The notes beneath the pieces were generated by a model, which saw nothing but the letters and a program-made list of their open reading frames with translations, did not search any database and was not told the origin of the DNA. Position numbers and translations under genes: made by a program. From an uncultured Pseudomonadota bacterium (GTDB lineage: Bacteria > Oederibacteriota > Muellerivitia > Muellerivitales > Muellerivitaceae), in contig CAVYRH010000004.1 of NCBI GenBank assembly GCA_963770835.1, positions 640,001 to 704,000 of the forward strand: a DNA stretch of 64,000 nt, read 5' to 3'. Positions 47,562-64,000 of this stretch are shown piece after piece; positions within the stretch are counted from its first letter, which is position 1; every line of letters starts with the position of its first letter.

Positions 47562-48188
47562 ATGGAAAAGAACGCCGCTGTGCCGGTCGTTGGTTTTCAA
47601 CCCGGTGACCAATTGCCCACGGGCAATTATTCCGGCCCTGTGGGGCTGACCCCCGGGCGCTTGGGCATCTGGGTCCTGATCGCTTCCGAAATCGTGCTCT
47701 TCGCGGGGCTGCTGGGTTCCTTCATCCTCATGCGGCTGATCAACCCTGCCTGGGCGGAAGAGGCCCGACATTTGAACCTTTACGCCGGGACGCTCAACTC
47801 GCTGGTCCTCATCACCAGCAATTTTTTCATGATGAAATCTTCCAAATCTGTCGCTGAGGAAAGAACGGACGATGCCAAGAAATTCATGGTGTTCACCATG
47901 GTTTTAGGAATTGTCTTTTTGGGGATAAAAGCTTTCGAGTATTCGGGCGAGTTCGCCCATGGGGAGTTCCCCACGAGCGGGGGGTTTTGGTCCTTTTATT
48001 TCTTAATGACGGGAATCCATGCGCTTCATATCATCGGAGGGCTCATCGCCATCCTCCTGCTGTGGTTTAAAACCCGGCACGAGCCCCTTCTTTCCTTGAG
48101 CAGCCGGGCCAATATTACGGGTATCTATTGGTCTTTCGTGGAAGTGGTCTGGATTTTCCTATTCCCCCTGCTTTATTTACTGGCTTAA
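47562..48188 (+). CDS. coxC: Oxidase subunit III-like
   Basis: IWVLIASE, TGIHALH, YWSFVEVVW. Confidence 0.9.
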   Translation: MEKNAAVPVVGFQPGDQLPTGNYSGPVGLTPGRLGIWVLIASEIVLFAGLLGSFILMRLINPAWAEEARHLNLYAGTLNSLVLITSNFFMMKSSKSVAEERTDDAKKFMVFTMVLGIVFLGIKAFEYSGEFAHGEFPTSGGFWSFYFLMTGIHALHIIGGLIAILLLWFKTRHEPLLSLSSRANITGIYWSFVEVVWIFLFPLLYLLA

Positions 48189-48198
48189 GGAGGCCGAC

Positions 48199-48495
48199 AT
48201 GAGTTCCAAGGCATCGACGAATCACGCCGCTATTTTTTCCAGTTTGTTGGTTCTTTCCCTCTGCGCGGTGGGGATCACCTTCCTGCACCTTTCGATCATG
48301 GCCAATAACCTCGCCATTTTCGGCGTGGCGGCGGTGATGGCGGGCTTGGTCCTGTTCCAATACATGAACCTTAAAGGGGAGGGGGGATTGATTTATTGGG
48401 TCCTCATCGTCCCCTTGGCGCTATTCGCCATCCTCCTATTTTTGCTCATGCCTGATGTTTGCCATTTCTCCGTTGATTTCTTGCGGGGCCTTTGA
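48199..48495 (+). CDS. Oxidase subunit IV-like
   Basis: Three TMs, LVLFQYMNLK.E (CoxIV-like FMHL variant); operon context. Confidence 0.75.
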   Translation: MSSKASTNHAAIFSSLLVLSLCAVGITFLHLSIMANNLAIFGVAAVMAGLVLFQYMNLKGEGGLIYWVLIVPLALFAILLFLLMPDVCHFSVDFLRGL

Positions 48496-48540
48496 TTTCC
48501 TTAGGGGATCAATCAGCTTTATTTTTAAAAGGCTGGTGAA

Positions 48541-49119
48541 ATGACGGTTACCACCATGGATTCCAACCAACGAAATTTGATTTCCGCCAAACTGGGGATT
48601 TTGCTTTTCATTACCGCCGAAGTCATGTTTTTCTCCGGCCTGATCAGCGCCTTTGTCGTGTTCCGCTTCAGCCCCGTTTCGTGGCCCCCGCCGGGCCAGC
48701 CCCGGCTTCCCCTTGGGGTCACAGCCTTTAATACCCTGGTGCTTCTCTTAAGCGGGGTGACCTTTCAACTGGCTTTCCGGGCCCTGAAATCCGTACGGTA
48801 TCAGGCATTTAAAAAGCTCCTGACCTGGACGGGAGCCCTGGGGGCACTTTTTCTTTGCGTTCAAGGATTTGAGTGGATTCGATTACTTCATTATGGGTTG
48901 ACCTTGCACTCCAGCATTTTTGGAGGGTTTTTCTATTGCCTCGTTGGGACCCATGGCCTTCACGTCTTGGGGGGGCTTATCGCCTTGCTATGGGTCTTGA
49001 AGCGGGCATGGGCGGATGCTTATGATTCTACCCAGGCCCTCGGCGTGGAAATCTGCAGGATCTACTGGTTTTTCGTCGTGGGTCTTTGGCCCATTATCTT
49101 CTTCCTGGTTTATTTATAA
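48541..49119 (+). CDS. Second oxidase subunit III-like protein
   Basis: FITAEVMFFSGL, WPPPG, GTHGLHVLGG, YWFFV..LW. Confidence 0.88.
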   Translation: MTVTTMDSNQRNLISAKLGILLFITAEVMFFSGLISAFVVFRFSPVSWPPPGQPRLPLGVTAFNTLVLLLSGVTFQLAFRALKSVRYQAFKKLLTWTGALGALFLCVQGFEWIRLLHYGLTLHSSIFGGFFYCLVGTHGLHVLGGLIALLWVLKRAWADAYDSTQALGVEICRIYWFFVVGLWPIIFFLVYL

Positions 49120-49359
49120 ATGGACGCCCTGATGACTAAAAAGAGTAATTTTTTTATTTTGACTTTGATCCGCCGATGGATGCCCGTGGTTTTATGGGGC
49201 ATGCCTTGGTTCGCACGAGCTTGTCCCCGATGCGTGGATGCAACCCCCTACCGTTCAGGCCTTCAACTGGCCGTTGCCGTCCTTCTTCCATTGCCTTTTG
49301 CCTTAGGATTTTTTCTATACCGGTTCCTTCGCCGCGCCTTGGCTTCGGAACCGAAATAA
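49120..49359 (+). CDS. Small membrane protein with ACPRC motif
   Basis: Directly follows the cox genes; signal-like segment, CxxC, one TM; start uncertain. Confidence 0.55.
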   Translation: MDALMTKKSNFFILTLIRRWMPVVLWGMPWFARACPRCVDATPYRSGLQLAVAVLLPLPFALGFFLYRFLRRALASEPK

Positions 49360-49572
49360 ACCTTCATATTTTTTGGTCCCCCCGGCTCATTTCCAGTAAA
49401 CCCTTATTCCGCATGCCTTGGCAAATCCGCCGCGTTACAGGCCTTGTTTTTCCTCCCGAATAAAACCTAGCTTTAAAATTAGTTCATATTGGGCCTGATT
49501 TCACCCGAATCAACAAATTTTCACACCCGCGGTCCGGGGGTGGGAGGGCCCAAGATGAGGAGGGAGGAGGCC

Positions 49573-49863
49573 ATGGCCCCTAAAAATAGTCCCAGTTCCC
49601 ATGAAATAACCTTCGGCTTGCTGTTCCTATTGGTGTTTTGTTCGGTGGGGGCAAGGTTGATCGATTTTCCGCCACTGACGAATAACCTAATTATCTTTGC
49701 TTCGGCGTTTTCGATGGCGGTCTTGGTTATTACCCAGTATATGGGCCTCAAGATCGAGGGAATGGTGGTGAGATTGACGGTGGCGGTACCTTTAATTCTT
49801 TTCGCCGTCCTAGTGGGAATCTTATTAATGGATATCGCCCATGTGCCACTGCCCCATCTTTGA
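49573..49863 (+). CDS. Second subunit IV-like paralogue
   Basis: GGAGG SD; NNLIIF...LVITQYMGLK.EG parallels the 48199 protein. Confidence 0.7.
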   Translation: MAPKNSPSSHEITFGLLFLLVFCSVGARLIDFPPLTNNLIIFASAFSMAVLVITQYMGLKIEGMVVRLTVAVPLILFAVLVGILLMDIAHVPLPHL

Positions 49864-50040: not shown

Positions 50041-50862
50041 ATGATCGCTGTCCAGTCAAAACCCGAGGAGACCACCCCGGAAACGTTCGAGAAATTTGAC
50101 AAGCCAAACGCCAAGAATTGGGATGGCCTTTCCCGCATGGCCTTCGCGGCCAATTGGGACCCGGAGTCCGCCATCAACTGGGACCTGCCGATTGAATTGG
50201 GCCAGGTGAGGGAAGGATGGATCAATATCCTGCATTACTTCTATGAGGGGGAATGGCAGGGGCTGGAAATCATCCAACGGCTGATGAACAAGGCATCGCA
50301 CTTATTCAAAAATCCGGAGATGGTGACTTACTATTCCACCCAATGCAGTGATGAGGCAAAACACCTGTTCGTCTTCCGCCGGTACCTCCAAAAACTTAAT
50401 TCGCCTCCCTCCAAGCAAAAGGCCTTCGACCTCCTGGTCTGGTTGGCGACTTCCGGGCCCATGGCAGTGGAACGCTGGATTCTCGGGACTTTCTTCACTG
50501 AAACCATGGCGGGAGCCATATTCCAGAAAACCCTGGAACTCCCGGCGATCGACCCCACGGGCAAGGAAATGATCCGCTGGCAGTTGAAGGACGAATCCCG
50601 GCATATCGCGGGCACCAAATTAGGGGTTCAAACCCTCATGAATCATTGTGGGCCCGTGAAAACCCGGATCCTGAAACTTTGGTGGAAGCTATTCGTGAAG
50701 CTGGCGATTAAGGAAGTGCGGGCTTTAAAGCCTTATGGCGACCAAGTTGGCATGGATCCGGAGTACATATTGAGGCGGTCCTTCGCCAAAATGGCGGAGC
50801 TCAAGGAATTCCAAGAAAAGTTCCTCGATAATCCCCAAGCCCGGTTTTTTCTGAGGGGTTGA
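50041..50862 (+). CDS. Ferritin-like di-iron carboxylate protein (AurF/desaturase-like fold)
   Basis: W....AINW, EGE, DEAKH, E, DESRH ligand set. Confidence 0.8.
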   Translation: MIAVQSKPEETTPETFEKFDKPNAKNWDGLSRMAFAANWDPESAINWDLPIELGQVREGWINILHYFYEGEWQGLEIIQRLMNKASHLFKNPEMVTYYSTQCSDEAKHLFVFRRYLQKLNSPPSKQKAFDLLVWLATSGPMAVERWILGTFFTETMAGAIFQKTLELPAIDPTGKEMIRWQLKDESRHIAGTKLGVQTLMNHCGPVKTRILKLWWKLFVKLAIKEVRALKPYGDQVGMDPEYILRRSFAKMAELKEFQEKFLDNPQARFFLRG

Positions 50863-52139
50863 TGATGGAATCCAACTCGTTTCAGGGTTCTTTTTTCCGG
50901 TTCACTAGCCGGTTTACCCAATGGTTCCCCCATGGGGGGGCGAAACTCTTGGACGGCCTTTTTTTCCCAATTTTGAGCAACGGATTCCTATTGCGCCATT
51001 TTCAAGGCAGGAATTTGAAAATGTTGAAGGGCATTCGTTCCTTTCGCCGCCTGCTCGTCATTGCGGACATCCATATCGGCGACGCCGTCCTGGCCCAGAC
51101 GGCCGTGCCGGCCTTAAAGGATTTTTTCCCCGAAGCCCAAGTGGATTTCGCGGTCAAGAAGTCCGTGGGGAGCCTTGTGGGGGGCCATCCCGACCTCTCA
51201 CAGGTCTGGCCCATCTTCACAGGCGGGCAATTTCCCAATGCGGGGGATATCCTTGGCATCCAGGAACTATCGGCGGAGTACGACGCCGTTTTCAATTTTT
51301 GCCCCTTCTTCGGGGAGAATCATTTCCCCAAGGAAAGCAGGGTTTTCCACGTTACGAGCCATGTCTCCGTTTTTGCCCGCAATGAACGGAGGCCGGACCC
51401 GCCGAACCATATCACTTACCAAGTCCATCGGTTTATTTATGACCTGTTATCATCCTTGTTTCCGATCCGCCGGGCCCGCCTTTTCGAGAGCCCGCAAGTT
51501 TCCCTGTCGCCGGAAGCGATACGGGAAGCGAACGATTTCATGCAATCCTTCACCCCGCCGGATGGGGACGCCGTTGTGTTCCTCAACCCCGATACCGCCT
51601 CGCCCTTTACCCAGATTCCTTTCCGGTTCCAAGCGGAGATTCTGAAAGGCCTCGCCGACTTACCCTGCCGAATTCTTTTGGGCGAGGGGCACACCGACAG
51701 GGGAATCGGCGAAAAATTATTATGGACCCTCCCGCTCCTAAAACGCGGCCGGGTTCAACTGGTTCCCGCCAGGCTTTCCCTGGAAACCTACACGGCTTTA
51801 ATCGACCACAGCGATTTATTTCTTTCGGGCGATACGGGGCCCCTCCACCTGGCGGCTGCCCGCAAAACGGACAAGAGTGGAAAAAGTCAACTGCACAACC
51901 GCACGACGGTTTTCAGCGTATTCGGGGCCACCCCTCCCCGTTTTTCGGGATATGACTCCGGCCCGGGGTTCTTGGAGAGTGGACAGGATGCACCCGCCAA
52001 AGCCTACCAATCGGAAAGCGCTTGTCGGAACATCACTTGCATTCACAAGATGGGAAAGGTTTGTGACGCGAAGGGTTGCTTTGAGGATCTTGACTCAAAA
52101 AAAATACTAGCCGATATCCGAACCCGGATAGGGGGTTGA
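50859..52139 (+). CDS. Glycosyltransferase family 9 (heptosyltransferase-like)
   Basis: HIGDAVL...ALK..FP.A, SGDTGPLHLAAA, VFGAT. Confidence 0.85.
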   Translation: MMMESNSFQGSFFRFTSRFTQWFPHGGAKLLDGLFFPILSNGFLLRHFQGRNLKMLKGIRSFRRLLVIADIHIGDAVLAQTAVPALKDFFPEAQVDFAVKKSVGSLVGGHPDLSQVWPIFTGGQFPNAGDILGIQELSAEYDAVFNFCPFFGENHFPKESRVFHVTSHVSVFARNERRPDPPNHITYQVHRFIYDLLSSLFPIRRARLFESPQVSLSPEAIREANDFMQSFTPPDGDAVVFLNPDTASPFTQIPFRFQAEILKGLADLPCRILLGEGHTDRGIGEKLLWTLPLLKRGRVQLVPARLSLETYTALIDHSDLFLSGDTGPLHLAAARKTDKSGKSQLHNRTTVFSVFGATPPRFSGYDSGPGFLESGQDAPAKAYQSESACRNITCIHKMGKVCDAKGCFEDLDSKKILADIRTRIGG

Positions 52140-53385: not shown

Positions 53386-53604
53386 TTAAAGGATGCCGCG
53401 GAAAACCTCAGAGGGTTTGCAAGCAAGAGCCCGCACGATGTTGAAAATTTTGGTGATGGAGGGGTTCCGAGAGCCTTTTTCAATGTAACTAACATAGACA
53501 GGATGGATTTCGGCATACCCTGCCAATTTCTCTTGGGTCCAACCGCGTCTCTTACGAATAGCCCTGACGTTTTTTCCTAACTTCTTCAAATTAATTTGAT
53601 CCAT
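53386..53604 (-). CDS. XRE-family HTH regulator
   Basis: LGKNVRAIRKRRGWTQEKLA....H..YVS.IEKG.RNPS. Confidence 0.88.
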   Translation of the reverse strand: MDQINLKKLGKNVRAIRKRRGWTQEKLAGYAEIHPVYVSYIEKGSRNPSITKIFNIVRALACKPSEVFRGIL

Positions 53605-54507: not shown

Positions 54508-55728
54508 ATGAGAAGAGTGGCTGTTACAGGCTTGGGAGTCATCTCCCCACTTGGAGGGGACGTTGAAACGACCTGGAAAGCCATGGTGGAGGGAAAAATC
54601 GGGGTGGAAAAACTCCGACTCATCGATCCAACCCCTTACCGGGTGAAAGTCGGGGGGGAAATCAAGGATCGCAGCCGGATCGAGGTTTTTGAAAGAGAGC
54701 ATGCCGGCAAGTATGAACGGTCGGCTGTTCTCTCCATCCTGGCGACGCAAGAAGCACTGGCTAAGGGAGGTTTGGCGCCCGCCGACCTGGAAAGCCAACG
54801 GTTAGGCAGCTTTTTTGGAACCACCATGGGGGAAGTCCAACTAGCCGAACGATTGTCCGCCGGCCAGGTTCAAAGCCCACCCGCGAAAATCGATCCCGGT
54901 AGTTTCCACAAAGTCCAGGGATCCCACATCGCTTTCTCCGTTTTGGATTACTTGGGCCTCGCGGGTCAAACCATGGTTTTCTGCAACGCCTGTGCCTCAG
55001 GCAATTACGCCATCGGGTGGGGTTTCGATCAGATCCGGCAAGGCTATTTGGACGTCGCTATTTGCGGCGGGGTCGATGCCTTCTCACGAGTGGCCTTCAC
55101 GGGTTTTAACCGGCTGCTTTCCTTGACACCGGACAAATGTAAGCCTTTTTCCGCCAACCGAAAGGGGCTGGCAGTTAGCGAGGGCGTGGGTGTCCTTTTA
55201 TTGGAGGATTTTGAAAAGGCCGAGGCGCGGGGCGTCCATGTTTACTGCGAGATCGCCGGTTACGGCCTTGGAATGGACGCTTTCCACATGACTTCTCCCC
55301 ATCCAGAGGGCATGGGTGCCTTTGAAAGCATCCAACGGGCCATGGCCCAGGCCAATATCAATCCCCAGGAAGTGGATTTCATTTCCGCCCACGGCACGGG
55401 AACCCCCGCCAACGATAAAACCGAATCCATCGCCATCAAAAAAATTTTCGGCCCAGACTGCCGGATCCCTGTTGATTCTATTAAGTCCATGATCGGCCAT
55501 ACCATGGGAGCCGCCAGCGCCATTGAGGCGGCCATGACCTCTCTTACCCTCGACCGCGGAATCCTTCTGCCAACCATGAACTGGGAGGTCGCCGATGAAA
55601 ATTGCATCGCTGATTGCGTGCCGAACCAGTCCCGGCCGTTCAAAGGGCATTTGGCCCTGTCCAATTCATTTGCTTTCGGCGGAAACACGTCCTGCCTGGT
55701 AATGACCAAGAAGGAAGAAACCCCATGA
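54508..55728 (+). CDS. Beta-ketoacyl-ACP synthase (FabF-like KS)
   Basis: RRVAVTGLG, catalytic NACASG, AHGTGT..ND, GHTMGAA, NSFAFGGN. Confidence 0.94.
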   Translation: MRRVAVTGLGVISPLGGDVETTWKAMVEGKIGVEKLRLIDPTPYRVKVGGEIKDRSRIEVFEREHAGKYERSAVLSILATQEALAKGGLAPADLESQRLGSFFGTTMGEVQLAERLSAGQVQSPPAKIDPGSFHKVQGSHIAFSVLDYLGLAGQTMVFCNACASGNYAIGWGFDQIRQGYLDVAICGGVDAFSRVAFTGFNRLLSLTPDKCKPFSANRKGLAVSEGVGVLLLEDFEKAEARGVHVYCEIAGYGLGMDAFHMTSPHPEGMGAFESIQRAMAQANINPQEVDFISAHGTGTPANDKTESIAIKKIFGPDCRIPVDSIKSMIGHTMGAASAIEAAMTSLTLDRGILLPTMNWEVADENCIADCVPNQSRPFKGHLALSNSFAFGGNTSCLVMTKKEETP

Positions 55729-56624
55729 GGCCCCTATTCCTCCTGCGAAAGGGAGAAGCCCTTCTGGGCCGGGACGGATTGACCCTGGATGTGCTGTCGG
55801 CGGAATTCAAAAAAACCTTCCCGCAGGAAGACCCACGGTACATCGACAACGTTTCCAAACTAGCCGGGATCGCGGCGAGCCGGGCTTGGGAAGGTGGGGA
55901 CGAAGGGCTTAGCGGTGAATTCCGGAAGGATTTCGCAGTTATCGTGGGAAGCGCTTTTGGGGCTATCGACAGCACGGTGGATTTCGACGCTCTGGCCCTC
56001 CAAAAAGGCCCCAATGCGGTGAATCCCATGGATTTTCCCAATACGGTCGCGAACGCAGCGGGAAGCCGGATCGGGATATGGATGCAGCTCAAAGGGCCCA
56101 ACGTGACCCTGACCAATGGAAGCACATCGTTCCTGGACGCAATCGGGTTCGGGCTCCAAGGATACAACAACGGACTTTTCCAGTATTGTTTAGTGGGAGC
56201 TGTAGATAAAATGCCGACTTTTCTCAAGCCTTTGGCGATTCGGGATTCCAAACTTCCCGAATTCTTGGAAGGGTCCTGTTTTTTCCTAGCCTCGGGTTCG
56301 GCGGAAGGGGAGACCCTGGGCCAAGTCACCGACTATTTCACACTCCAATTGAAGGCCGACCTCAGTCTTCCGCCAGCTTTTCTCCATCATTTTGAGGAAC
56401 TCGGGGAAGGGGTAGAATGGCTAGGTTGTCCGGAGGGAACTCCGCTGGAATCCCATTTTCCTCAAAGAGTTATTCGTCACTTTCTGCCTTCGTCGTTCAT
56501 GGAATTGGGATTGGGGGGCATGCAGTCCTTGAATACTTTTCTTAAATCCTCTTCTTCCTGTGGGGTGATTGCTGCTTTTTCAAAACCAGAAAGAAAAATG
56601 TCTTTCGTTAAAATTAAAAAATAA
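55725..56624 (+). CDS. Truncated KS-like protein without catalytic Cys (chain-length-factor-like)
   Basis: GP.AVNPMDFPNTVANA, GPNVTLTNGSTS (no Cys); ATGA-coupled to the KS. Confidence 0.8.
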   Translation: MRPLFLLRKGEALLGRDGLTLDVLSAEFKKTFPQEDPRYIDNVSKLAGIAASRAWEGGDEGLSGEFRKDFAVIVGSAFGAIDSTVDFDALALQKGPNAVNPMDFPNTVANAAGSRIGIWMQLKGPNVTLTNGSTSFLDAIGFGLQGYNNGLFQYCLVGAVDKMPTFLKPLAIRDSKLPEFLEGSCFFLASGSAEGETLGQVTDYFTLQLKADLSLPPAFLHHFEELGEGVEWLGCPEGTPLESHFPQRVIRHFLPSSFMELGLGGMQSLNTFLKSSSSCGVIAAFSKPERKMSFVKIKK

Positions 56625-56640
56625 AAAGGAGTCTTTGAAA

Positions 56641-56886
56641 ATGGAAACCATCGAAATCAAATCAAAAATCAAGGAAATCATTGGAGAAATGTTCGAGGTC
56701 AAGCCGGTGGATATTCGAGATGACAATCCTTTCAACCAAATGGCCAATTACAATTCCATGCGAGCCTTGGAATTCTTAGCGAAACTGGAAACAGAATTCA
56801 ACATCCTCATTGACCCGGATATGTTACCGAAGATGGTGTCGGTGGGAAAATCTACTCAGGTCGTCGAGGAACTTCTACGTGGCTAG
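56641..56886 (+). CDS. Acyl carrier protein
   Basis: Acidic 81 aa; NYNSMRALEFLAKLETEFNI with Ser at the phosphopantetheine position; AAGGAG SD. Confidence 0.85.
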   Translation: METIEIKSKIKEIIGEMFEVKPVDIRDDNPFNQMANYNSMRALEFLAKLETEFNILIDPDMLPKMVSVGKSTQVVEELLRG

Positions 56887-57328
56887 TTCTTCTCCCGCGC
56901 CCGAAGTCCCGGTTTTAGACTTCTTAAAACAGCGGTTCCCCATCCTCATGGTGGATCGAGTCTTGTCCTATGAGAAGGGCCGGAAGATTCAGACCTTGAA
57001 AAACATTTCGGCAGATGAAATCCATTTCCAGGGGCATTTTCCAGGCTATCCTGTGTTTCCAGGAGTTTTAACCATCGAATGTTTTGCTCAAACGGCGGCT
57101 ATTTTAATCCGTATGATTGACGGAGAATCACCCGGCGTGTTCGACGTGATCGGCTCGGTGATGGATTTCCGGTTTCTTCGACCACTTTTTCCCGGGGACC
57201 GGCTGGAAGTCTGGATGGAAATCACCAAGGCCGCCGGGACCAACCGTATCATCGAAGGAAAAGGTTTTGTGGGTGAAGAGATGGTGGCCTCCGGTAAATT
57301 CACATTTGGAAAGTTGGCGTTGCCATGA
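56879..57328 (+). CDS. FabZ-like 3-hydroxyacyl-ACP dehydratase
   Basis: QRFPILMVDRV, FQGHFPGYPVFPGVL.IE..AQ. Confidence 0.9.
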   Translation: MASSSPAPEVPVLDFLKQRFPILMVDRVLSYEKGRKIQTLKNISADEIHFQGHFPGYPVFPGVLTIECFAQTAAILIRMIDGESPGVFDVIGSVMDFRFLRPLFPGDRLEVWMEITKAAGTNRIIEGKGFVGEEMVASGKFTFGKLALP

Positions 57329-58044
57329 AAAAAGTCGTCGTCTCCGGGGGCTCTTCTGGAATCGGCAAAAGTCTGGTGACAATCTTCGCGGAGGCCGGGT
57401 GGAAGGTCCATTTTACCTTCCATTCCAACGAATCCGCGGCGCGGGAGATCGAAAAGAGTTTTGAGGGAAAGGCTAAGGCCCACCAGCTGGACGTCGGCGA
57501 TCGGGAGGCTTGCGACGTATTCTGCAAGGAAGTTCTGGGCGAGGAAAAAAGCATCGACGTTCTTATAAATAATGCCGGCATTACCAGGGACAAGCCGCTG
57601 TTTTCCATGCAAGATTCAGACTGGTCCGACGTGCTCCAAACGAATCTTTCGGGGGTTTTCCATCTCACCCGGCGGTTCGCCCTGGATATGTTGAAAAAGA
57701 AGAAAGGGCGCATTATCAATATCTCCTCCATCTCCGGTATCCATGGACTCCCGGGTCAAACCAATTACTCCGCCTCCAAAGCCGGAATCATTGGTTTTAC
57801 CAAAGCCCTCGCTAAGGAAACGGGGCCCTTCGGCGTAACAGCCAACGTTGTTGCGCCTGGCGGGGTTATGACGCCCATGATTGAGATACTGGCACCGCAA
57901 GCCAGGGAAGTCCTCCTGCGAACCGTTCCCGTGCACCGCTTTTGCGAACCTCGCGAAGTGGCTCAGGTTGTTTTTTTTCTAGCTGAGGGGGCCCCGGATT
58001 ATTTAAACGGAAGTGTTATTGTCCTCGACGGTGGGGCAGGTTGA
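57325..58044 (+). CDS. FabG-like 3-oxoacyl-ACP reductase
   Basis: SGGSSGIG, NNAGITRD, GQTNYSASKAG. Confidence 0.93.
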   Translation: MKKVVVSGGSSGIGKSLVTIFAEAGWKVHFTFHSNESAAREIEKSFEGKAKAHQLDVGDREACDVFCKEVLGEEKSIDVLINNAGITRDKPLFSMQDSDWSDVLQTNLSGVFHLTRRFALDMLKKKKGRIINISSISGIHGLPGQTNYSASKAGIIGFTKALAKETGPFGVTANVVAPGGVMTPMIEILAPQAREVLLRTVPVHRFCEPREVAQVVFFLAEGAPDYLNGSVIVLDGGAG

Positions 58045-58859
58045 GGATGGGAAAAAACAGAAAGACTTGGCCATGGAAAGCGGGAGAAGGATTTGGACGG
58101 TTGGAACCGGATGAAATCCACATCCACCTTCTTCGAGCCGGATGCGGGAATTCGCGGTCTTTAGTTAAGGCCCTCCTTTCTTTTTTGCCGGCCGCGGAAC
58201 GATGGCGTTACGCGCAGTTTGACTTTGAAGACCAACGGCGGCAGTTTTTGTGGTCCCGGTTATTGGCGCGCCTTGTTTTGTCTTCTTCTTTGGACAAGGA
58301 TATGCGGGATATAACCTTTAGCCATTTGGACAACGGGAAGCCCTTCCTGGAAGATTCGGAAGTCCAATTCAACCTTTCCCATACGGAAGGTCTTATCGCC
58401 TGTTCCGTGGCCCGGCGGAGATTGGGGATCGACGTCGAAAAGATGGCAGGAGGGGAGAAAGAAGAAAAGCGTTGGAACCTTTTGGCCGAACGTTATTTTT
58501 CAGAGGCCGAAAGGGAATTCCTCTTTTCGCGGGATCAAGCTTCGCAATCAGACGCTTTTTTCCGGATTTTTACAATGAAGGAGGCCAGGGTCAAGGCAAG
58601 TGGGGAGGGTTTATCCCTTCTCCGCGCGGATCTTTCAGTCCCTTTACCAACACGGGAAAAATCGGCTGTTGACTCTTGGGAATACCTCACGAAACGCCTA
58701 GAACCGGGCGACATCTTTTTGGCCCATGCCGTGGAAAACCCGAACCTGACGCCGTTGGACTATCGGTTTTGGGAATGGGACGAAGTTTCCCTGGGAAACT
58801 TTTTAAACAATCGAATTTCGGGTCCATTTGAAGGAATTCATGGCAATCTCTACAGGTAA
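58041..58859 (+). CDS. 4'-phosphopantetheinyl transferase (Sfp type)
   Basis: NGKPFL, FNLSHT, LGIDVE, F...FTMKEA..KA.G.GL. Confidence 0.9.
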   Translation: MRMGKNRKTWPWKAGEGFGRLEPDEIHIHLLRAGCGNSRSLVKALLSFLPAAERWRYAQFDFEDQRRQFLWSRLLARLVLSSSLDKDMRDITFSHLDNGKPFLEDSEVQFNLSHTEGLIACSVARRRLGIDVEKMAGGEKEEKRWNLLAERYFSEAEREFLFSRDQASQSDAFFRIFTMKEARVKASGEGLSLLRADLSVPLPTREKSAVDSWEYLTKRLEPGDIFLAHAVENPNLTPLDYRFWEWDEVSLGNFLNNRISGPFEGIHGNLYR

Positions 58860-60255
58860 AGATACTTTTATCCTCTGTCGTAACAGCCAAGGCACGGAGT
58901 TCCGCGCCACGCTTCTTCGATTGACGCGGTACACGGTAGTTTTCGAGGTTTACAACCCCTACAGCATTCTCCAGCTGTCCGAGGTTTTAACCGACTTCCG
59001 CATGATTATGAACGACCGCATGGTTTATTCCGGACGGGCTGTCGTCAGTAACCTCGTTAACACCGGTATATTATTGGTTTGCGAATGCACTTTGGAGGAC
59101 AGCTGGCTGGACGTAGATTTATTTACTTCCATCCACCAAAAAGACAAACTTAAGAACGAATTCGTAGAATTTTTAAAGGAATGGGATAAGATCCATTTCG
59201 TGACCGACAAGTTCAAGGTGGTTACGGCGGATATGCAAACCTTCCTCATGGACATGCGGCGCTGGCTGGAACAAGTGGAACTCAGTATCCGATCCGAACC
59301 CTCGGGCGACCGGAATGAAATCGAACGAGACGCCATTCAGGAATTGAAAAATCCCGTTACGCCGGCTGTGAGTTCCTTGTTCGAGCGGTTCGAGGAAATA
59401 TCCATCCATGTGCCAGACGATTTGCAATCAATCCATCGCAACTACAGCCGGCGGCAGATACATCCCATTATTCTTTGTTCGCCATTCGTTTACCGTAGTT
59501 TCCAAAAGCCATTGGGATACGCCGGGGATTATGAAATGGTGAACATGATGCTGGGGGACCCATTGCAGGGAGGCTCCCTCTTCGCCAAGATTGTCAATTT
59601 TTGGTTTGTCAACGCCCCGCCTTGCGAGGCTCACCGTAACCGCATTAAGCACTTGGTAGGAAGGCTGGTGGAGGAAACCGAAAGAGTGGCCAGGGATAAA
59701 AAAATTGCCCGCGTTTTAGACATGGCCTGTGGGCCAGCCCGGGAAGTTCAGGAATTCCTGACCCACGAGGAGATTTGCAACAAAGCCCAATTTGAATTAT
59801 TGGATTTCAACGATGAAACGCTGGAATTCACCGGAAAGACGCTGGAAGATTTAAAAAAACGACACCACCGGATTACTCCGATCTTCATGAACAAAAAATC
59901 AGTTAATCACATCCTCAAGGAAACATTTAAGCCATCGAACCCCTTGCCGGAAGACGCTTATGATTTTATTTACTGTGCTGGCCTGTTTGACTACTTGGAA
60001 GACCGTATTTGCAAGAAACTCATGGATTATTTTTACGAGCGTTTGGCGCCGGGAGGGCTTTTGCTGGCCACCAACGTGACCCCTTCCAACCCTTTCAAGA
60101 ATGTCATGGAAAGCTTCATGGAATGGCATTTGATCTACCGGAATGAACAGCAGATGACAGTTATTCAGCCCCAAGCTGCGCCGGAGGAGGCCTGTACAAT
60201 TCGGACCGAAGTCACAGGCATTAATGTTTTTCTTGAGGTGCGGAAACCCAAATGA
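58840..60255 (+). CDS. PhcB-like SAM-dependent methyltransferase (fatty-acid methyl ester signal synthase family)
   Basis: N-terminal RNSQG...FEVYNPYSILQLSEVL...AVV..L.NTG recalls Ralstonia PhcB; KPLGYAGDYEMVN; SAM motif LDMACGPARE; YCAGLFDYL. Confidence 0.8.
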   Translation: MAISTGKDTFILCRNSQGTEFRATLLRLTRYTVVFEVYNPYSILQLSEVLTDFRMIMNDRMVYSGRAVVSNLVNTGILLVCECTLEDSWLDVDLFTSIHQKDKLKNEFVEFLKEWDKIHFVTDKFKVVTADMQTFLMDMRRWLEQVELSIRSEPSGDRNEIERDAIQELKNPVTPAVSSLFERFEEISIHVPDDLQSIHRNYSRRQIHPIILCSPFVYRSFQKPLGYAGDYEMVNMMLGDPLQGGSLFAKIVNFWFVNAPPCEAHRNRIKHLVGRLVEETERVARDKKIARVLDMACGPAREVQEFLTHEEICNKAQFELLDFNDETLEFTGKTLEDLKKRHHRITPIFMNKKSVNHILKETFKPSNPLPEDAYDFIYCAGLFDYLEDRICKKLMDYFYERLAPGGLLLATNVTPSNPFKNVMESFMEWHLIYRNEQQMTVIQPQAAPEEACTIRTEVTGINVFLEVRKPK

Positions 60256-62924
60256 GCCTAGATCTTTTAAAGAGTCAACTCGACATTAAAACGGCCTTCC
60301 AGAAATACGATAAAGAGCAAAAATTGCGTCTTTACAAGCTGGCCTGTTGGTTCACGGCCTTCGGAATGCCAGGGGGGATGTCCCTGGACATGAATATTTA
60401 TCCCGCTGACGTCCCCCACTTTTTAAAACTTCGCCTTCTTTCTTCAGTGTTGGCGCTTATTCTCCTGGGATTTTTTTATACTTCACTGGGATTGAGGTAT
60501 TACCGGATTCTTTGTTTTATCCTTCCCCTGATCCCCCAGGGTTTTATCAGCTGGATGATTTACACCACAGAAGGGTCGGTTTCACCTTATTACGCGGGTT
60601 TAAGCCTGATACTTCTGGCTTTTTGCCTGTTGTTACCCTGGAGTTTCCAAGAGACCCTTTTCTTGTCCCTTGCCACAATCGGTTTTTACCTGGCCGCCTG
60701 CTTGGCTCATGGAAACATCTCTTTCCACGGTATCTTTTTCAGCAACCTATATTTCCTGAGCATGACCGCCCTTTTCGCCACTATTGGCAGTTATTTCACC
60801 AGCCGCCTACGCGTGCGGGAATTCATCGCGCGATTTGAATTGGATCAGAATAAAAGAATGCTCGAAGAGTCAAATCGTAAATTGGTAGAACTGGACAAAA
60901 TGAAAAGCCGGTTTTTCGCCAACATCAGCCATGAACTTCGTACTCCCCTCACCCTCCTCATTGCCCCCTTGGAAACGCTCCAAAGGGAAAAAGGCCATTT
61001 GTTCGACGAGGAAACAAGAAACACTTTCAAAATCATGCAGGACAATGCTATGCGGTTATTGAAGCTCATCAACGACCTTTTGGACTTGGTGAAACTGGAG
61101 TCAGGACGCATGGAGGTGCGGAAGGAACCATTAAAGGTGAGAGAATTCATCAAGGGGCTGACCCTAGCCGTGCAAGGCGCGGCGAAGGACAAGAAAGTCT
61201 TGCTTTCCACCCACGTGGACGAAAAGTTGGAGACCATCTTGGCCGATCGGGACAAGTTGGAGAAGATCATTTTGAACCTGCTTTTTAATTCCGTGAAATT
61301 CACTCCGTCAGGGGGAAGAATAGATATTTCGGCTAAAGGGGAGAATGGGTGGTTTTTCCTTCAGGTGAAGGATACGGGTATGGGCATTTCCGAGGAAAAC
61401 CTGCCCCACATTTTCGACCGATTCTGGCAGGCGGACTCTTCCGCCCAGCGCAAATACCAGGGAACGGGTATCGGTCTTTCCTTGGTCCGGGAACTGGTCG
61501 AAGTCCAGGGCGGGACGGTGATGGTCGAAAGCCAGTTGGGGAAGGGCACGACGATGACCGTGAAAATCCCGCTGGAGAGGGTTCTAGAAGTCCCTCGGGA
61601 GAAGGTGGATTCGACCGGCTCACCGGTGGTTGAAGAACCCGCCAAGGCGCAGGTGGCCGAATGGCTGGAAAAACTCTACCGGAGGGCCGAGCTTTTCCCG
61701 GCCATGACGCCAGTGGCCGCCACGTTGCACCAAGATCAGTTTGGAAGAGGCAAAAAACCAAAGGTTCTTGTTGCGGATGACGAGCCGGACATGCTGAAGT
61801 TCTTAAAGTCCCAATTGGAGAAATACTACGAGGTTGTGGAAGCCGTCGATGGAAACCAAGCGGTTGAAAAAGCCAAACAATTTCTCCCGGACCTCGTTTT
61901 ACTCGACATGATGATGCCAGGTAAGGACGGCATCCAGGCCTGCCGGGAATTGAAGGAACAGGTTTCCACAAAATCCATACCCGTCATTCTTTTGACGGCC
62001 CGGGCCGATGAGGATACCAAGTTTTCCGCCCTCGATGCAGGGGCAAGCGATTTCTTGACAAAACCCTTTTCCACCACCGAATTGCATGTCCGGATTAAAA
62101 ACTTGATGGAGTCCCACCAATTTCAACGGGATTTGGCCCGTCAAAAAAGTGCACTAGAATCGACACTCGAGCAGTTGAAGGAAACGGAAGGACAACTGGT
62201 TCAAAACGAAAAGATGGCTTCCCTTGGGCGGCTCAGTGCGGGTATCATCCACGAAATCAACAATCCCCTGAATTATGCGGCCCAGGCCCTCTATCTGCTC
62301 AAAACTAAAAAAGACCGTATACCGGAAGAGGACCGGGCCAAATACGTTGAAATCGTTTCGGATATCGAAGAGGGAGTGGGAAGGGTCCAACGGATCGTTT
62401 CCGACCTTCGAACATTCAGCCACCCGCACATGGGCGGGGGGACGGATCTCATCGAGTTGGAAGAGGTTGTTTCCACGGCCCTGCGTCTCTTGGGGCATGA
62501 GTTGAACGACGGAATTCAATTGGAAGTGAACGTGCCGAAAGAGGAACAGGTTCAAGCGGACCGGAACAAACTGATCCATGTTCTCGTGAACCTCCTCCAA
62601 AACTCGATGGATGCACTCAAAGAAAAAAAATTCGAGGACGGGGAAAAGCCCCTTTTGTCCATCCGAAGCCAAGCGGACGAAAGCAAGGTATGGGTGAGCA
62701 TCCAGGACAACGGCACTGGCATCGACCCGGAGAACATGAACAAGATTTTCGATCCCTTCTTTACCACCAAGGACGTGGGGCAAGGAATGGGGTTGGGCTT
62801 GAGCATCTGCTACCGAATCATGAACGAGCAAGGCGGCAACATCTCGGTCAAGAGTGAAAAAGGTAAATTCACCGAATTTACCTTGGAATTGCCGGTGAAG
62901 GATCCGCCACAAAAGCGTTTTTAA
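60252..62924 (+). CDS. Membrane hybrid histidine kinase (TMs-HK-REC-HK), PhcS-like
   Basis: About 6 TMs; SHELRTPLT with a full HATPase; receiver ADDE...LLDMMMP; second H-box IHEINNPLN with a HATPase. Confidence 0.88.
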   Translation: MSLDLLKSQLDIKTAFQKYDKEQKLRLYKLACWFTAFGMPGGMSLDMNIYPADVPHFLKLRLLSSVLALILLGFFYTSLGLRYYRILCFILPLIPQGFISWMIYTTEGSVSPYYAGLSLILLAFCLLLPWSFQETLFLSLATIGFYLAACLAHGNISFHGIFFSNLYFLSMTALFATIGSYFTSRLRVREFIARFELDQNKRMLEESNRKLVELDKMKSRFFANISHELRTPLTLLIAPLETLQREKGHLFDEETRNTFKIMQDNAMRLLKLINDLLDLVKLESGRMEVRKEPLKVREFIKGLTLAVQGAAKDKKVLLSTHVDEKLETILADRDKLEKIILNLLFNSVKFTPSGGRIDISAKGENGWFFLQVKDTGMGISEENLPHIFDRFWQADSSAQRKYQGTGIGLSLVRELVEVQGGTVMVESQLGKGTTMTVKIPLERVLEVPREKVDSTGSPVVEEPAKAQVAEWLEKLYRRAELFPAMTPVAATLHQDQFGRGKKPKVLVADDEPDMLKFLKSQLEKYYEVVEAVDGNQAVEKAKQFLPDLVLLDMMMPGKDGIQACRELKEQVSTKSIPVILLTARADEDTKFSALDAGASDFLTKPFSTTELHVRIKNLMESHQFQRDLARQKSALESTLEQLKETEGQLVQNEKMASLGRLSAGIIHEINNPLNYAAQALYLLKTKKDRIPEEDRAKYVEIVSDIEEGVGRVQRIVSDLRTFSHPHMGGGTDLIELEEVVSTALRLLGHELNDGIQLEVNVPKEEQVQADRNKLIHVLVNLLQNSMDALKEKKFEDGEKPLLSIRSQADESKVWVSIQDNGTGIDPENMNKIFDPFFTTKDVGQGMGLGLSICYRIMNEQGGNISVKSEKGKFTEFTLELPVKDPPQKRF

Positions 62925-62934
62925 GGAGACTGTC

Positions 62935-64000
62935 ATGGAATCTTTTTATGACTATAAAAAGTTTTATATCCTTTACGTGGATGACGAGGAAAAATCCCTT
63001 AAGTATTTCCGGGAGACCTTCGGGGAAAAATTCGCTATTTTAACGGCTTCCAACGCGGAGGAAGGGTTCCGGATTTTAAAGGAACATCAAGACAGGACTG
63101 CCGTTTTGCTCACAGACCAGCGCATGCCAGGAGAGAAGGGAATCCAACTCTTAGAAAAGGCAAGGCAATTGAAACCCCGGATCCTCAGGATTTTGGTAAC
63201 CGCTTATTCGGACCTGGACACCGCCATCGACTCCGTCAATACGGGTGCCATTTACAAATACGTGACCAAACCTTGGGACGTGCCCCAGTTGGAAGTTACC
63301 TTAAAAAGGGCCGTGGAGTTTTTTATTGTTCAATCCGAGAGGGACCATCTGCTGATGGAAAAAATGTCCGTTCTTTATAATGTCATGCTAACCGACCGTA
63401 TCTTGAGCTTGGGAATCTTGGCAATGGGCCTAAGCCACCATATCCGTAATTCCATGGTAGCGGTCAAAACTTTCCTCGACTTGACGCCTAAAAAAATGGA
63501 AGAAGAAAATCTTAATTTGGAGCAGCTCCGGAATCCTGATTTCTGGAAGGATTACTACCAAAAGGTTCAGGCCCAGATGGATAAGGTAGTTAACCTCTTG
63601 AGCGATTTATGGGGATCCTCAGAAAAACCTATGGTTGATCTTTCCGATAAGGTCCAATTGCGTCAAGTCGTTGAGGAAGCTCTCGGACAAGTGAGAGAGG
63701 ATTTGGAAAAAAAGGGAATTACCGCGGAAAATCTCATACCAGCGGCCCTTCCCGAATTAAAGGTCGAGCGAAAGAAATTCCAACGTTTATTCGAGATGTT
63801 GTTAAGGGATGAAGCGGCCACTCTTTCCAAGGGCGGAAAATTGAAGTTTACTGCGGCCACCATTGGGCCCAAGGAAGGGCCTGCCGAAATCCAAGTGGAA
63901 TTGGAGGACAATGGGCCTGAATTGCAACAAGACGCCTTGCGAGCCCTTTTTGACCCGTTTTTTACGCGGAGCGGAAGCCCTCAGGAATTCGGTATTTATT
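62935..64000 (+). CDS. Receiver plus histidine-kinase-like protein, PhcQ/PhcR-like (3' truncated by window edge; absent from the ORF track)
   Basis: AAGGAG SD; MESFYDYKKFYILYVDDEEKSLKYF...LTDQRMPGEKG...KPWD...LSHHIRNS; frame open to the window end. Confidence 0.85.
   Translation, partial: MESFYDYKKFYILYVDDEEKSLKYFRETFGEKFAILTASNAEEGFRILKEHQDRTAVLLTDQRMPGEKGIQLLEKARQLKPRILRILVTAYSDLDTAIDSVNTGAIYKYVTKPWDVPQLEVTLKRAVEFFIVQSERDHLLMEKMSVLYNVMLTDRILSLGILAMGLSHHIRNSMVAVKTFLDLTPKKMEEENLNLEQLRNPDFWKDYYQKVQAQMDKVVNLLSDLWGSSEKPMVDLSDKVQLRQVVEEALGQVREDLEKKGITAENLIPAALPELKVERKKFQRLFEMLLRDEAATLSKGGKLKFTAATIGPKEGPAEIQVELEDNGPELQQDALRALFDPFFTRSGSPQEFGIY

Follow-up and report, generated by a model that had tools for sequence, protein, structure and literature searches.

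At the downstream end of a 64,000-nucleotide (nt) window of DNA from an uncultured bacterium (the window being the whole stretch that we analysed, on contig CAVYRH010000004.1), nine genes join a type II ketosynthase line to a signalling module of the Phc quorum-sensing (QS) type. Our preferred reading, which we regard as reasonably probable from sequence comparison, is that this line is dedicated to a distinct acyl methyl-ester signal, which would be made by the methyltransferase PhcB and read by a sensor domain inherited together with it. All nine open reading frames lie on the + strand, from 54508 to past 64000, in the order given by an earlier note on this DNA: ketosynthase (KS), chain-length-factor-like subunit (CLF), acyl carrier protein (ACP), dehydratase (DH), ketoreductase (KR), phosphopantetheinyl transferase (PPTase), methyltransferase, hybrid kinase and receiver protein. 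They mostly overlap, as had been described (six of the eight junctions, by -4 to -20 nt, the remaining two being gaps of 16 and 10 nt), and Pfam and NCBIfam profiles back every gene assignment.

Co-inheritance of the line, PhcB and the sensor domain

We surveyed 99 genomes of the phylum, 32 of them in the host order and 31 in the host family. Full-length phcB is present in 26 of the 99 (25 of the 31 family genomes and 1 in a sister family), with short, weak matches only in 5 further phylum genomes. Thirteen of the 31 family genomes have a CLF orthologue (48-100% identity), and a search of the 68 phylum genomes outside the family gave none; 6 of the 31 have neither phcB nor the line. In all 13 line-bearing genomes phcB accompanies the line, lying within 7 kb on the same contig in 12 of them and across a contig break in one (G049). 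Chance does not account for the order KS-CLF-ACP-DH-(KR)-PPT-phcB, which is seen again in 12 other family genomes, on a single contig in 11 and split by a contig break in the remaining one. Close CLF relatives are rare, with 7 representatives at E<=1e-30 among 1.84 billion, and a metagenome scan with CLF returned two loci, one with phcB and one ending in a CrtI-like gene. A distant CLF in G044 (31%) was rejected as the same line, since its cluster is a different one, which includes MMPL and LolA genes, and the genome has no phcB.

In Ralstonia, the available text of PMC8578825 and PMC7694676 describes PhcB and PhcS trees that track signal type and PhcR and PhcQ trees that track phylotype. We applied this contrast here, labelling each genome by whether it has the line. 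In the PhcB tree, the 13 line-bearing rows (of 26) make up one clade (100/100), as do the 11 line-bearing rows of the 24 in the sensor-domain tree (100/97), from which G049 and G050 were left out owing to short coverage. In contrast, a line-bearing clade is rejected by approximately unbiased tests for both histidine kinase (HK) cores of the hybrid kinase (HK1, 23 rows, p 5e-40; HK2, 20 rows, p 2e-42), for the PhcQ C-terminus (17 rows, p 5e-4) and for RpoB (23 rows, p 4e-31), rows being missing from these four trees where contigs end. Conversely, same-genus groupings are rejected in the PhcB and sensor trees in 6/6 tests (p<=2e-4), with the test groups picked after the first trees had been seen. 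The earlier note would have been refuted had the fatty-acid synthase genes not been co-conserved with phcB; they are, in all 13 line-bearing genomes, which share one PhcB clade and, in the 11 rows available, one sensor clade.

The point at which the two histories meet can be located within the kinase gene. G068, which has the line, and G069, which does not, are sisters in the RpoB, HK2 and PhcQ trees and have the same genes on their flanks. When compared segment by segment, G068 is nearer to the genome of the window than to G069 in 8/8 PhcB and 3/3 sensor segments, but nearer to G069 in 11/12 kinase segments from residue 181 onward, so that identity switches from following the line to following the genus at about kinase residue 180. 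Line-diagnostic alignment columns are distributed accordingly, with 12 in PhcB, 7 in the kinase (6 of them within residues 20-176) and 0 in PhcQ. Synthase and sensor hence co-vary apart from the species tree, as in Phc QS. Since PhcB and the sensor each form one line-bearing clade that the kinase cores, PhcQ and RpoB reject, the line, the synthase and the sensor domain act as a single cassette that is exchanged, and the switch falls within the kinase gene.

Tailoring genes vary among the relatives. Between PPTase and kinase, 6 genomes carry a CrtI/phytoene-desaturase-like FAD enzyme and 4 a second short-chain dehydrogenase/reductase (SDR), 2 of these genomes having both, the two assignments being at family level and below curated cut-offs. 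The four second-SDR loci, from three genera, form their own PhcB clade (96/97) and their own sensor clade (100/100). The KS-CLF-ACP-DH core of one of them, G067, is nevertheless sister to that of the window (100/100), though its PhcB and sensor group with the SDR loci. Such joint transfer of the SDR, the synthase and the sensor to a core already in place would be expected if the SDR alters the ligand. The CrtI-like gene does not mark out a sensor clade; its family occurs in 7 of the 32 order genomes, all line-bearing, and in 6 of them inside the operon. The seventh stands alone in G000 (L174:8712-10295), is 41-44% identical to the operon copies and is the sole non-operon copy among the 32 genomes.

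The predicted signalling proteins

The methyltransferase (58840..60255, 471 aa) belongs with PhcB, as the earlier note had proposed. It is 38-39% identical over 467 residues to Cupriavidus necator N-1 PhcB and a C. taiwanensis cluster-mate, the comparison having been made with Cupriavidus proteins and not with a Ralstonia sequence. A tree of 29 rows places it with beta-proteobacterial PhcB (97/97), apart from three homologues that are shorter and long-branched, and many of its homologues bear the JGI name PhcB. The predicted model (pLDDT 86) has an N-terminal beta-barrel, a helical part and a class I methyltransferase (MT) domain, and no close solved structure was found for it, the best being 3OCJ (Z 19.2, rmsd 3.6, 260 aligned). 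The barrel (residues 6-100, window 58840-59140) resembles PilZ domains (atlas score 0.84), which we note as a lead only, and presumably lacks the c-di-GMP motifs of PilZ. It also holds R22, a conserved residue whose change in PhcB alters QS in Ralstonia, according to the available text of PMC6989110. Elsewhere, on an Enterobacter plasmid (L187:6709-9846), a trans-AT-like polyketide synthase (PKS) has a KS-ACP-MT module whose last domain is a PhcB-like MT (28%), and release as a methyl ester is possible there.

The next gene encodes a hybrid kinase of 890 aa (60252..62924). The earlier note had called it a membrane hybrid kinase, and the membrane sensor and receiver are indeed there; the refinement is that two HisKA/HATPase cores surround the receiver (REC), giving a transmembrane sensor-HK1(H227)-REC(D552)-HK2(H667) layout. 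All three residues are present in 80/80 full-length homologues (98 loci). The polytopic, PhcS-type sensor domain occupies about residues 1-190 (60252..60821), and residues 42-435 align with a PhcS-named protein (26%, membrane part included). The N-terminus of that protein matches the sensor, but its kinase part matches HK2 (36%) better than HK1, and because of this fit the short beta-proteobacterial PhcS may derive from a hybrid kinase by internal loss. No separate soluble PhcR (kinase plus receiver) was found between the sensor kinase and phcQ; its role may be taken by the HK1-REC portion of the hybrid.

The last gene (62935..64000, ending 197 nt past the window; 420 aa) had been described as a receiver joined to a kinase. 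The receiver (D61) stands, and the kinase core is degenerate: among 74 homologues, D61, K112 and R155 are present in all, the H-box His in 47 and the N-box Asn in 5. The protein is therefore a predicted receiver with a pseudo-kinase, PhcQ-like and not PhcR-like. The final phc gene product in Paraburkholderia (L138), identified as PhcQ by position and not by name, shares 38% identity with it over 206 aa. Past the window, a soluble kinase and a regulator of 204 aa come after phcQ (L001:2336-4145) and are a candidate output; one or both of these genes lie near the phc locus, up- or downstream, in about 7 family genomes.

The assembly line and the predicted signal

The KS (54508..55728, 406 aa) has an intact triad (C162/H295/H331), as do all 12 complete KS rows. 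It overlaps by 4 nt (-4) with the CLF (55725..56624), a truncated protein of 299 aa in which Ser replaces the catalytic Cys, which is missing in 15/15 CLF rows; its Pfam/NCBIfam match is to the KS N-terminal part only. The best solved relatives of the two are chains B and C of one PDB entry: the KS matches 9S5H_B with 355 bits (best FabF 271, Iga11 256) and the CLF matches 9S5H_C with 75 bits (next 37.5). This entry is presumably the anammox Cluster I heterodimer, amxFabF2/amxFabFmut of Brocadia, because residue numbers in the alignment match those in 10.64898/2026.05.19.726425. The CLF carries the tunnel motif NPMDFPNTV and keeps the tunnel residues F135/T138/V139 named in that source.

Downstream lie a dedicated ACP (56641..56886, Ser39, best PDB match 6KXF_C), a FabZ-type 3-hydroxyacyl-ACP dehydratase with catalytic His/Glu (56879..57328; above the NF000582 cut-off on a frame starting 18 nt earlier), a FabG-type ketoreductase of the SDR family with YxxxK (57325..58044) and an Sfp-type PPTase assigned by Pfam/NCBIfam (58041..58859). 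The host has a housekeeping plsX-fabH-fabD-fabG-fabF cluster and acpS on another contig, and the assembly line is therefore additional. FabK was not found in the host, and none of the 6 of 12 host SDR matches that were scanned was above the NCBIfam cut-off for FabI or FabL. A cispentacin-type AmcF/AmcE identity was rejected, as scores were below those of the FabF and FabZ models. Elsewhere in G000, biotin-type genes stand beside a KS and an SDR (L176:4107-10135), a possible dedicated precursor route.

What might such a line make? In the available text of PMC10698177 and PMC9006962, KS-CLF, KR and DH without an enoyl reductase define a highly reducing, polyene-forming type II PKS, and none of the 13 line-bearing operons contains an enoyl reductase. 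The polyene product guessed at in the earlier note is favoured by this absence, but is weakened because the KS has Met107 at the position of D113 in the ishigamide KS Iga11 (the latter taken from a review). By a shared motif, Met107 seems to be the back-gate position, I108 of FabF. In the human mitochondrial KS, a Met at the back gate results in a bimodal profile, with C8 and C14-16.

What the sequences show is which genes are present, that their active sites are intact, to which families they belong, that they are co-inherited and where the switch lies; the chemical steps and the signalling role given next are inferred. The PPTase would prime the dedicated ACP, host FabD would supply malonyl units (the operon has no acyltransferase), KS-CLF would elongate the chain, and KR and DH would process it. 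The chain would probably keep one or more double bonds, because the operon has no enoyl reductase, and may end as a 3-hydroxy acid; it would probably be of medium length, because of the Met at the KS back gate. PhcB would then methylate its carboxyl end, either from the ACP or as the free acid: the MT domain ending the KS-ACP-MT module of L187 makes release from the ACP plausible, and a thioesterase in the operon of G064 points to the free acid. The ester would diffuse out, bind the membrane sensor and shift the flow of phosphate that passes through HK1-REC-HK2 to the PhcQ-like receiver, and in relatives the optional CrtI-like, SDR or thioesterase genes would alter the signal. It is likely, judging from the sequences, that bacteria of the host family build custom lipid-ester signals in exchangeable "dialects". 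The chances seem to us evenly balanced for the fuller proposition, namely that the autoinducer skeleton comes from a type II PKS of its own, related to the anammox KS/CLF and fitted with plug-in tailoring, that the cassette of line, synthase and sensor domain is exchanged between genera with its break within the kinase gene, and that the products are new unsaturated methyl esters.

Several observations weigh against the reading of a dedicated line that supplies a distinct signal. Twelve family genomes (80-99% complete) have phcB without the line, although one such call (G066) comes from a genome 84% complete with 480 nt upstream of phcB only. Beyond the family, a genome scan gave 80 loci, or 73 outside loci once 7 duplicates of family loci were removed; most keep phcB-kinase-phcQ, and the line is present in 0/48 of those with >=6 kb upstream. 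Co-conservation with phcB is thus confined to the host family, and by this distribution the line is a putative family-level addition to a widespread Phc-type core. The 13 line-bearing genomes are kin and not independent events, so that events are few: on the RpoB tree, the distribution of the line needs at least 3 changes (gain or loss), and 6 on the best tree. A passenger could be carried along in a single recombination tract by physical linkage alone, and the PPT-phcB junction can accept extra genes, as it does in the loci of 8 relatives. Finally, the constraints on the chemistry are loose, given that Met107 replaces the acidic residue in 12/12 complete KS rows (Ala in 9S5H_B) and that in G064 a type II thioesterase takes the place of the operon KR. 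The tailoring enzymes are known at family level only.

Three other explanations were weighed. The line might feed PhcB with an ordinary saturated 3-hydroxy chain of set length, giving a standard 3-hydroxy methyl ester as in Ralstonia; a host enoyl reductase would then act in trans and the line would be an insulated supply. The KS without the Asp of polyene KSs would fit, as would FabZ/FabG-like DH and KR, CLF tunnel residues identical to those of amxFabFmut, and the nearest solved KS/CLF being described, in the available text of 10.64898/2026.05.19.726425, as of fatty-acid type with a C12/C16 tunnel and a C8 preference. We nonetheless consider this unlikely, since an enoyl reductase is present in 0/13 operons, the optional CrtI-like and SDR enzymes and the 12 diagnostic PhcB changes suggest altered chemistry, and a private line would presumably add little for a chain that the housekeeping synthase already makes.

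The line could instead be a passenger that makes a separate lipid or metabolite, co-transcribed and controlled by density, with PhcB using housekeeping 3-hydroxyacyl-ACP and the shared trees reflecting linkage. Its position directly upstream of phcB within the exchanged tract is compatible with this, phc loci without the line outnumber those with it, and the KS-CLF-ACP-DH tree mostly tracks genus and not PhcB subclades. However, 0/13 PhcBs of the clade have lost the line, which never occurs without phcB and has KS identities of 68-87% across genomes; no export, ligase or acyl-transfer gene offers the chain another exit; and the tailoring SDR tracks a sensor clade. This explanation strikes us as quite improbable. 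We give still less credence, and regard as very unlikely, the idea that the product is a membrane-resident lipid read by the kinase in the same cell, for envelope or metabolic sensing, and not a diffusible density signal. The wholly intramembrane sensor and a wiring unlike that of Ralstonia, with two kinase cores and no separate PhcR, would agree with it, but both sensor and synthase have homologues among characterised QS components, with which they share the co-variation with signal type, and FadL channels lie beside many relatives' loci. Such FadL-type (FadL/TodX) lipid channels adjoin phcB in 33 of the 73 outside loci, mostly in Verrucomicrobiota (e.g. L064:8586-9836). At one locus (L050:15867-21157), FadL, a divergent FabF-like KS and a further sensor kinase come after the phc genes.

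Known systems and genomic surroundings

Signals from dedicated ketosynthases and Phc signalling are already known. In agreement with the earlier note, which knew of no characterised system with this combination, we found no description of PhcB coupled to such a line in the open-licence literature (subscription papers were not covered). The Phc systems of Ralstonia and Cupriavidus (3-OH PAME / 3-OH MAME) likewise have a PhcB homologue, a PhcS-type sensor and a PhcQ-like last gene in the same order. Here, in contrast, the operon has its own KS-CLF/ACP/KR/DH/PPTase line and optional tailoring enzymes, the sensor is fused to HK-REC-HK (890 aa versus ~445) with no separate PhcR, and PhcQ is longer (420 versus 336-337 aa) with a recognisable degenerate kinase core.

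The line itself has other counterparts. Anammox ladderane Cluster I comprises amxFabF2/amxFabFmut, amxACP, amxFabZ, a phytoene-dehydrogenase homologue and a radical SAM enzyme; it shares with the present operon the nearest solved KS/CLF (9S5H, assigned by residue numbering), the CLF tunnel motif and, in 6 of the 13 operons, a phytoene-desaturase-like gene. Unlike that cluster, the operon and its inserts include no radical SAM enzyme, the CLF is truncated (299 versus 412 aa), KR, PPTase and PhcB are present, and the coupling is to signalling and not to membrane lipid synthesis. The ishigamide Iga11-Iga12-ACP system is similar in having KS-CLF, KR, DH and ACP without an enoyl reductase, and its 6KXF ACP is the nearest to ours, but Met107 stands for D113, starter-loading and amide-forming enzymes are lacking, and release is predicted to go through PhcB. 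In staphylococcal agr specificity groups, signal genes and the receptor's sensor end co-vary and the kinase core follows the species; agr differs in its peptide signal and unrelated proteins. In Photorhabdus, according to the available text of PMC7154725, the dialkylresorcinol (DarABC) and photopyrone (PpyS) signals come from dedicated ketosynthases, with a dedicated ACP in dar. Those enzymes join two acyl precursors and their products are read by LuxR solos, whereas the present system has an iterative KS-CLF line, a methyltransferase and a membrane kinase.

Phc has been characterised in Ralstonia and its neighbours, with two simple 3-hydroxy esters as signals. If our preferred reading is true, Phc chemistry also takes in polyketide esters built for the purpose, and exchange of the biosynthetic cassette together with the sensor end of the kinase is how new lipid "dialects" come about. 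The seven biosynthetic genes span 5.7 kb and would require host malonyl supply alone, so that the molecule is directly testable in E. coli. The natural variants (plain, with CrtI-like enzyme, with SDR, with thioesterase), each paired with its own sensor, are a set for mapping ligand specificity, and the operon offers a system related to the anammox KS/CLF pair that is small and easy to work with.

The GC content at third codon positions (GC3) of the operon is in line with that of housekeeping genes and gives no sign of recent foreign origin. Promoter and terminator scans of the operon were at chance level (10 vs 7.8 and 26 vs 17.5, respectively). Upstream XRE, CRP, AurF-like and GT9 genes were rejected as parts of the operon, since their linkage is not conserved in 106 loci (one distant XRE match). 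The divergent 72-aa XRE regulator (53386-53604) lies 900 nt upstream of the KS, beyond an AT-rich gap, and is not kept in relatives. Further upstream, an AurF-like di-iron oxygenase is coupled to a family 9 glycosyltransferase (50041-52139), and a run of small membrane proteins (47562-49863) resembles, by eye, repeated oxidase subunit III/IV paralogues. Several named close relatives bear the label candidate division FCPU426. In many relatives the phc locus is flanked by nuclease and HEAT-repeat genes; in G000 these stand next to each other with nothing between them (L178:3632-6968), the operon having moved.

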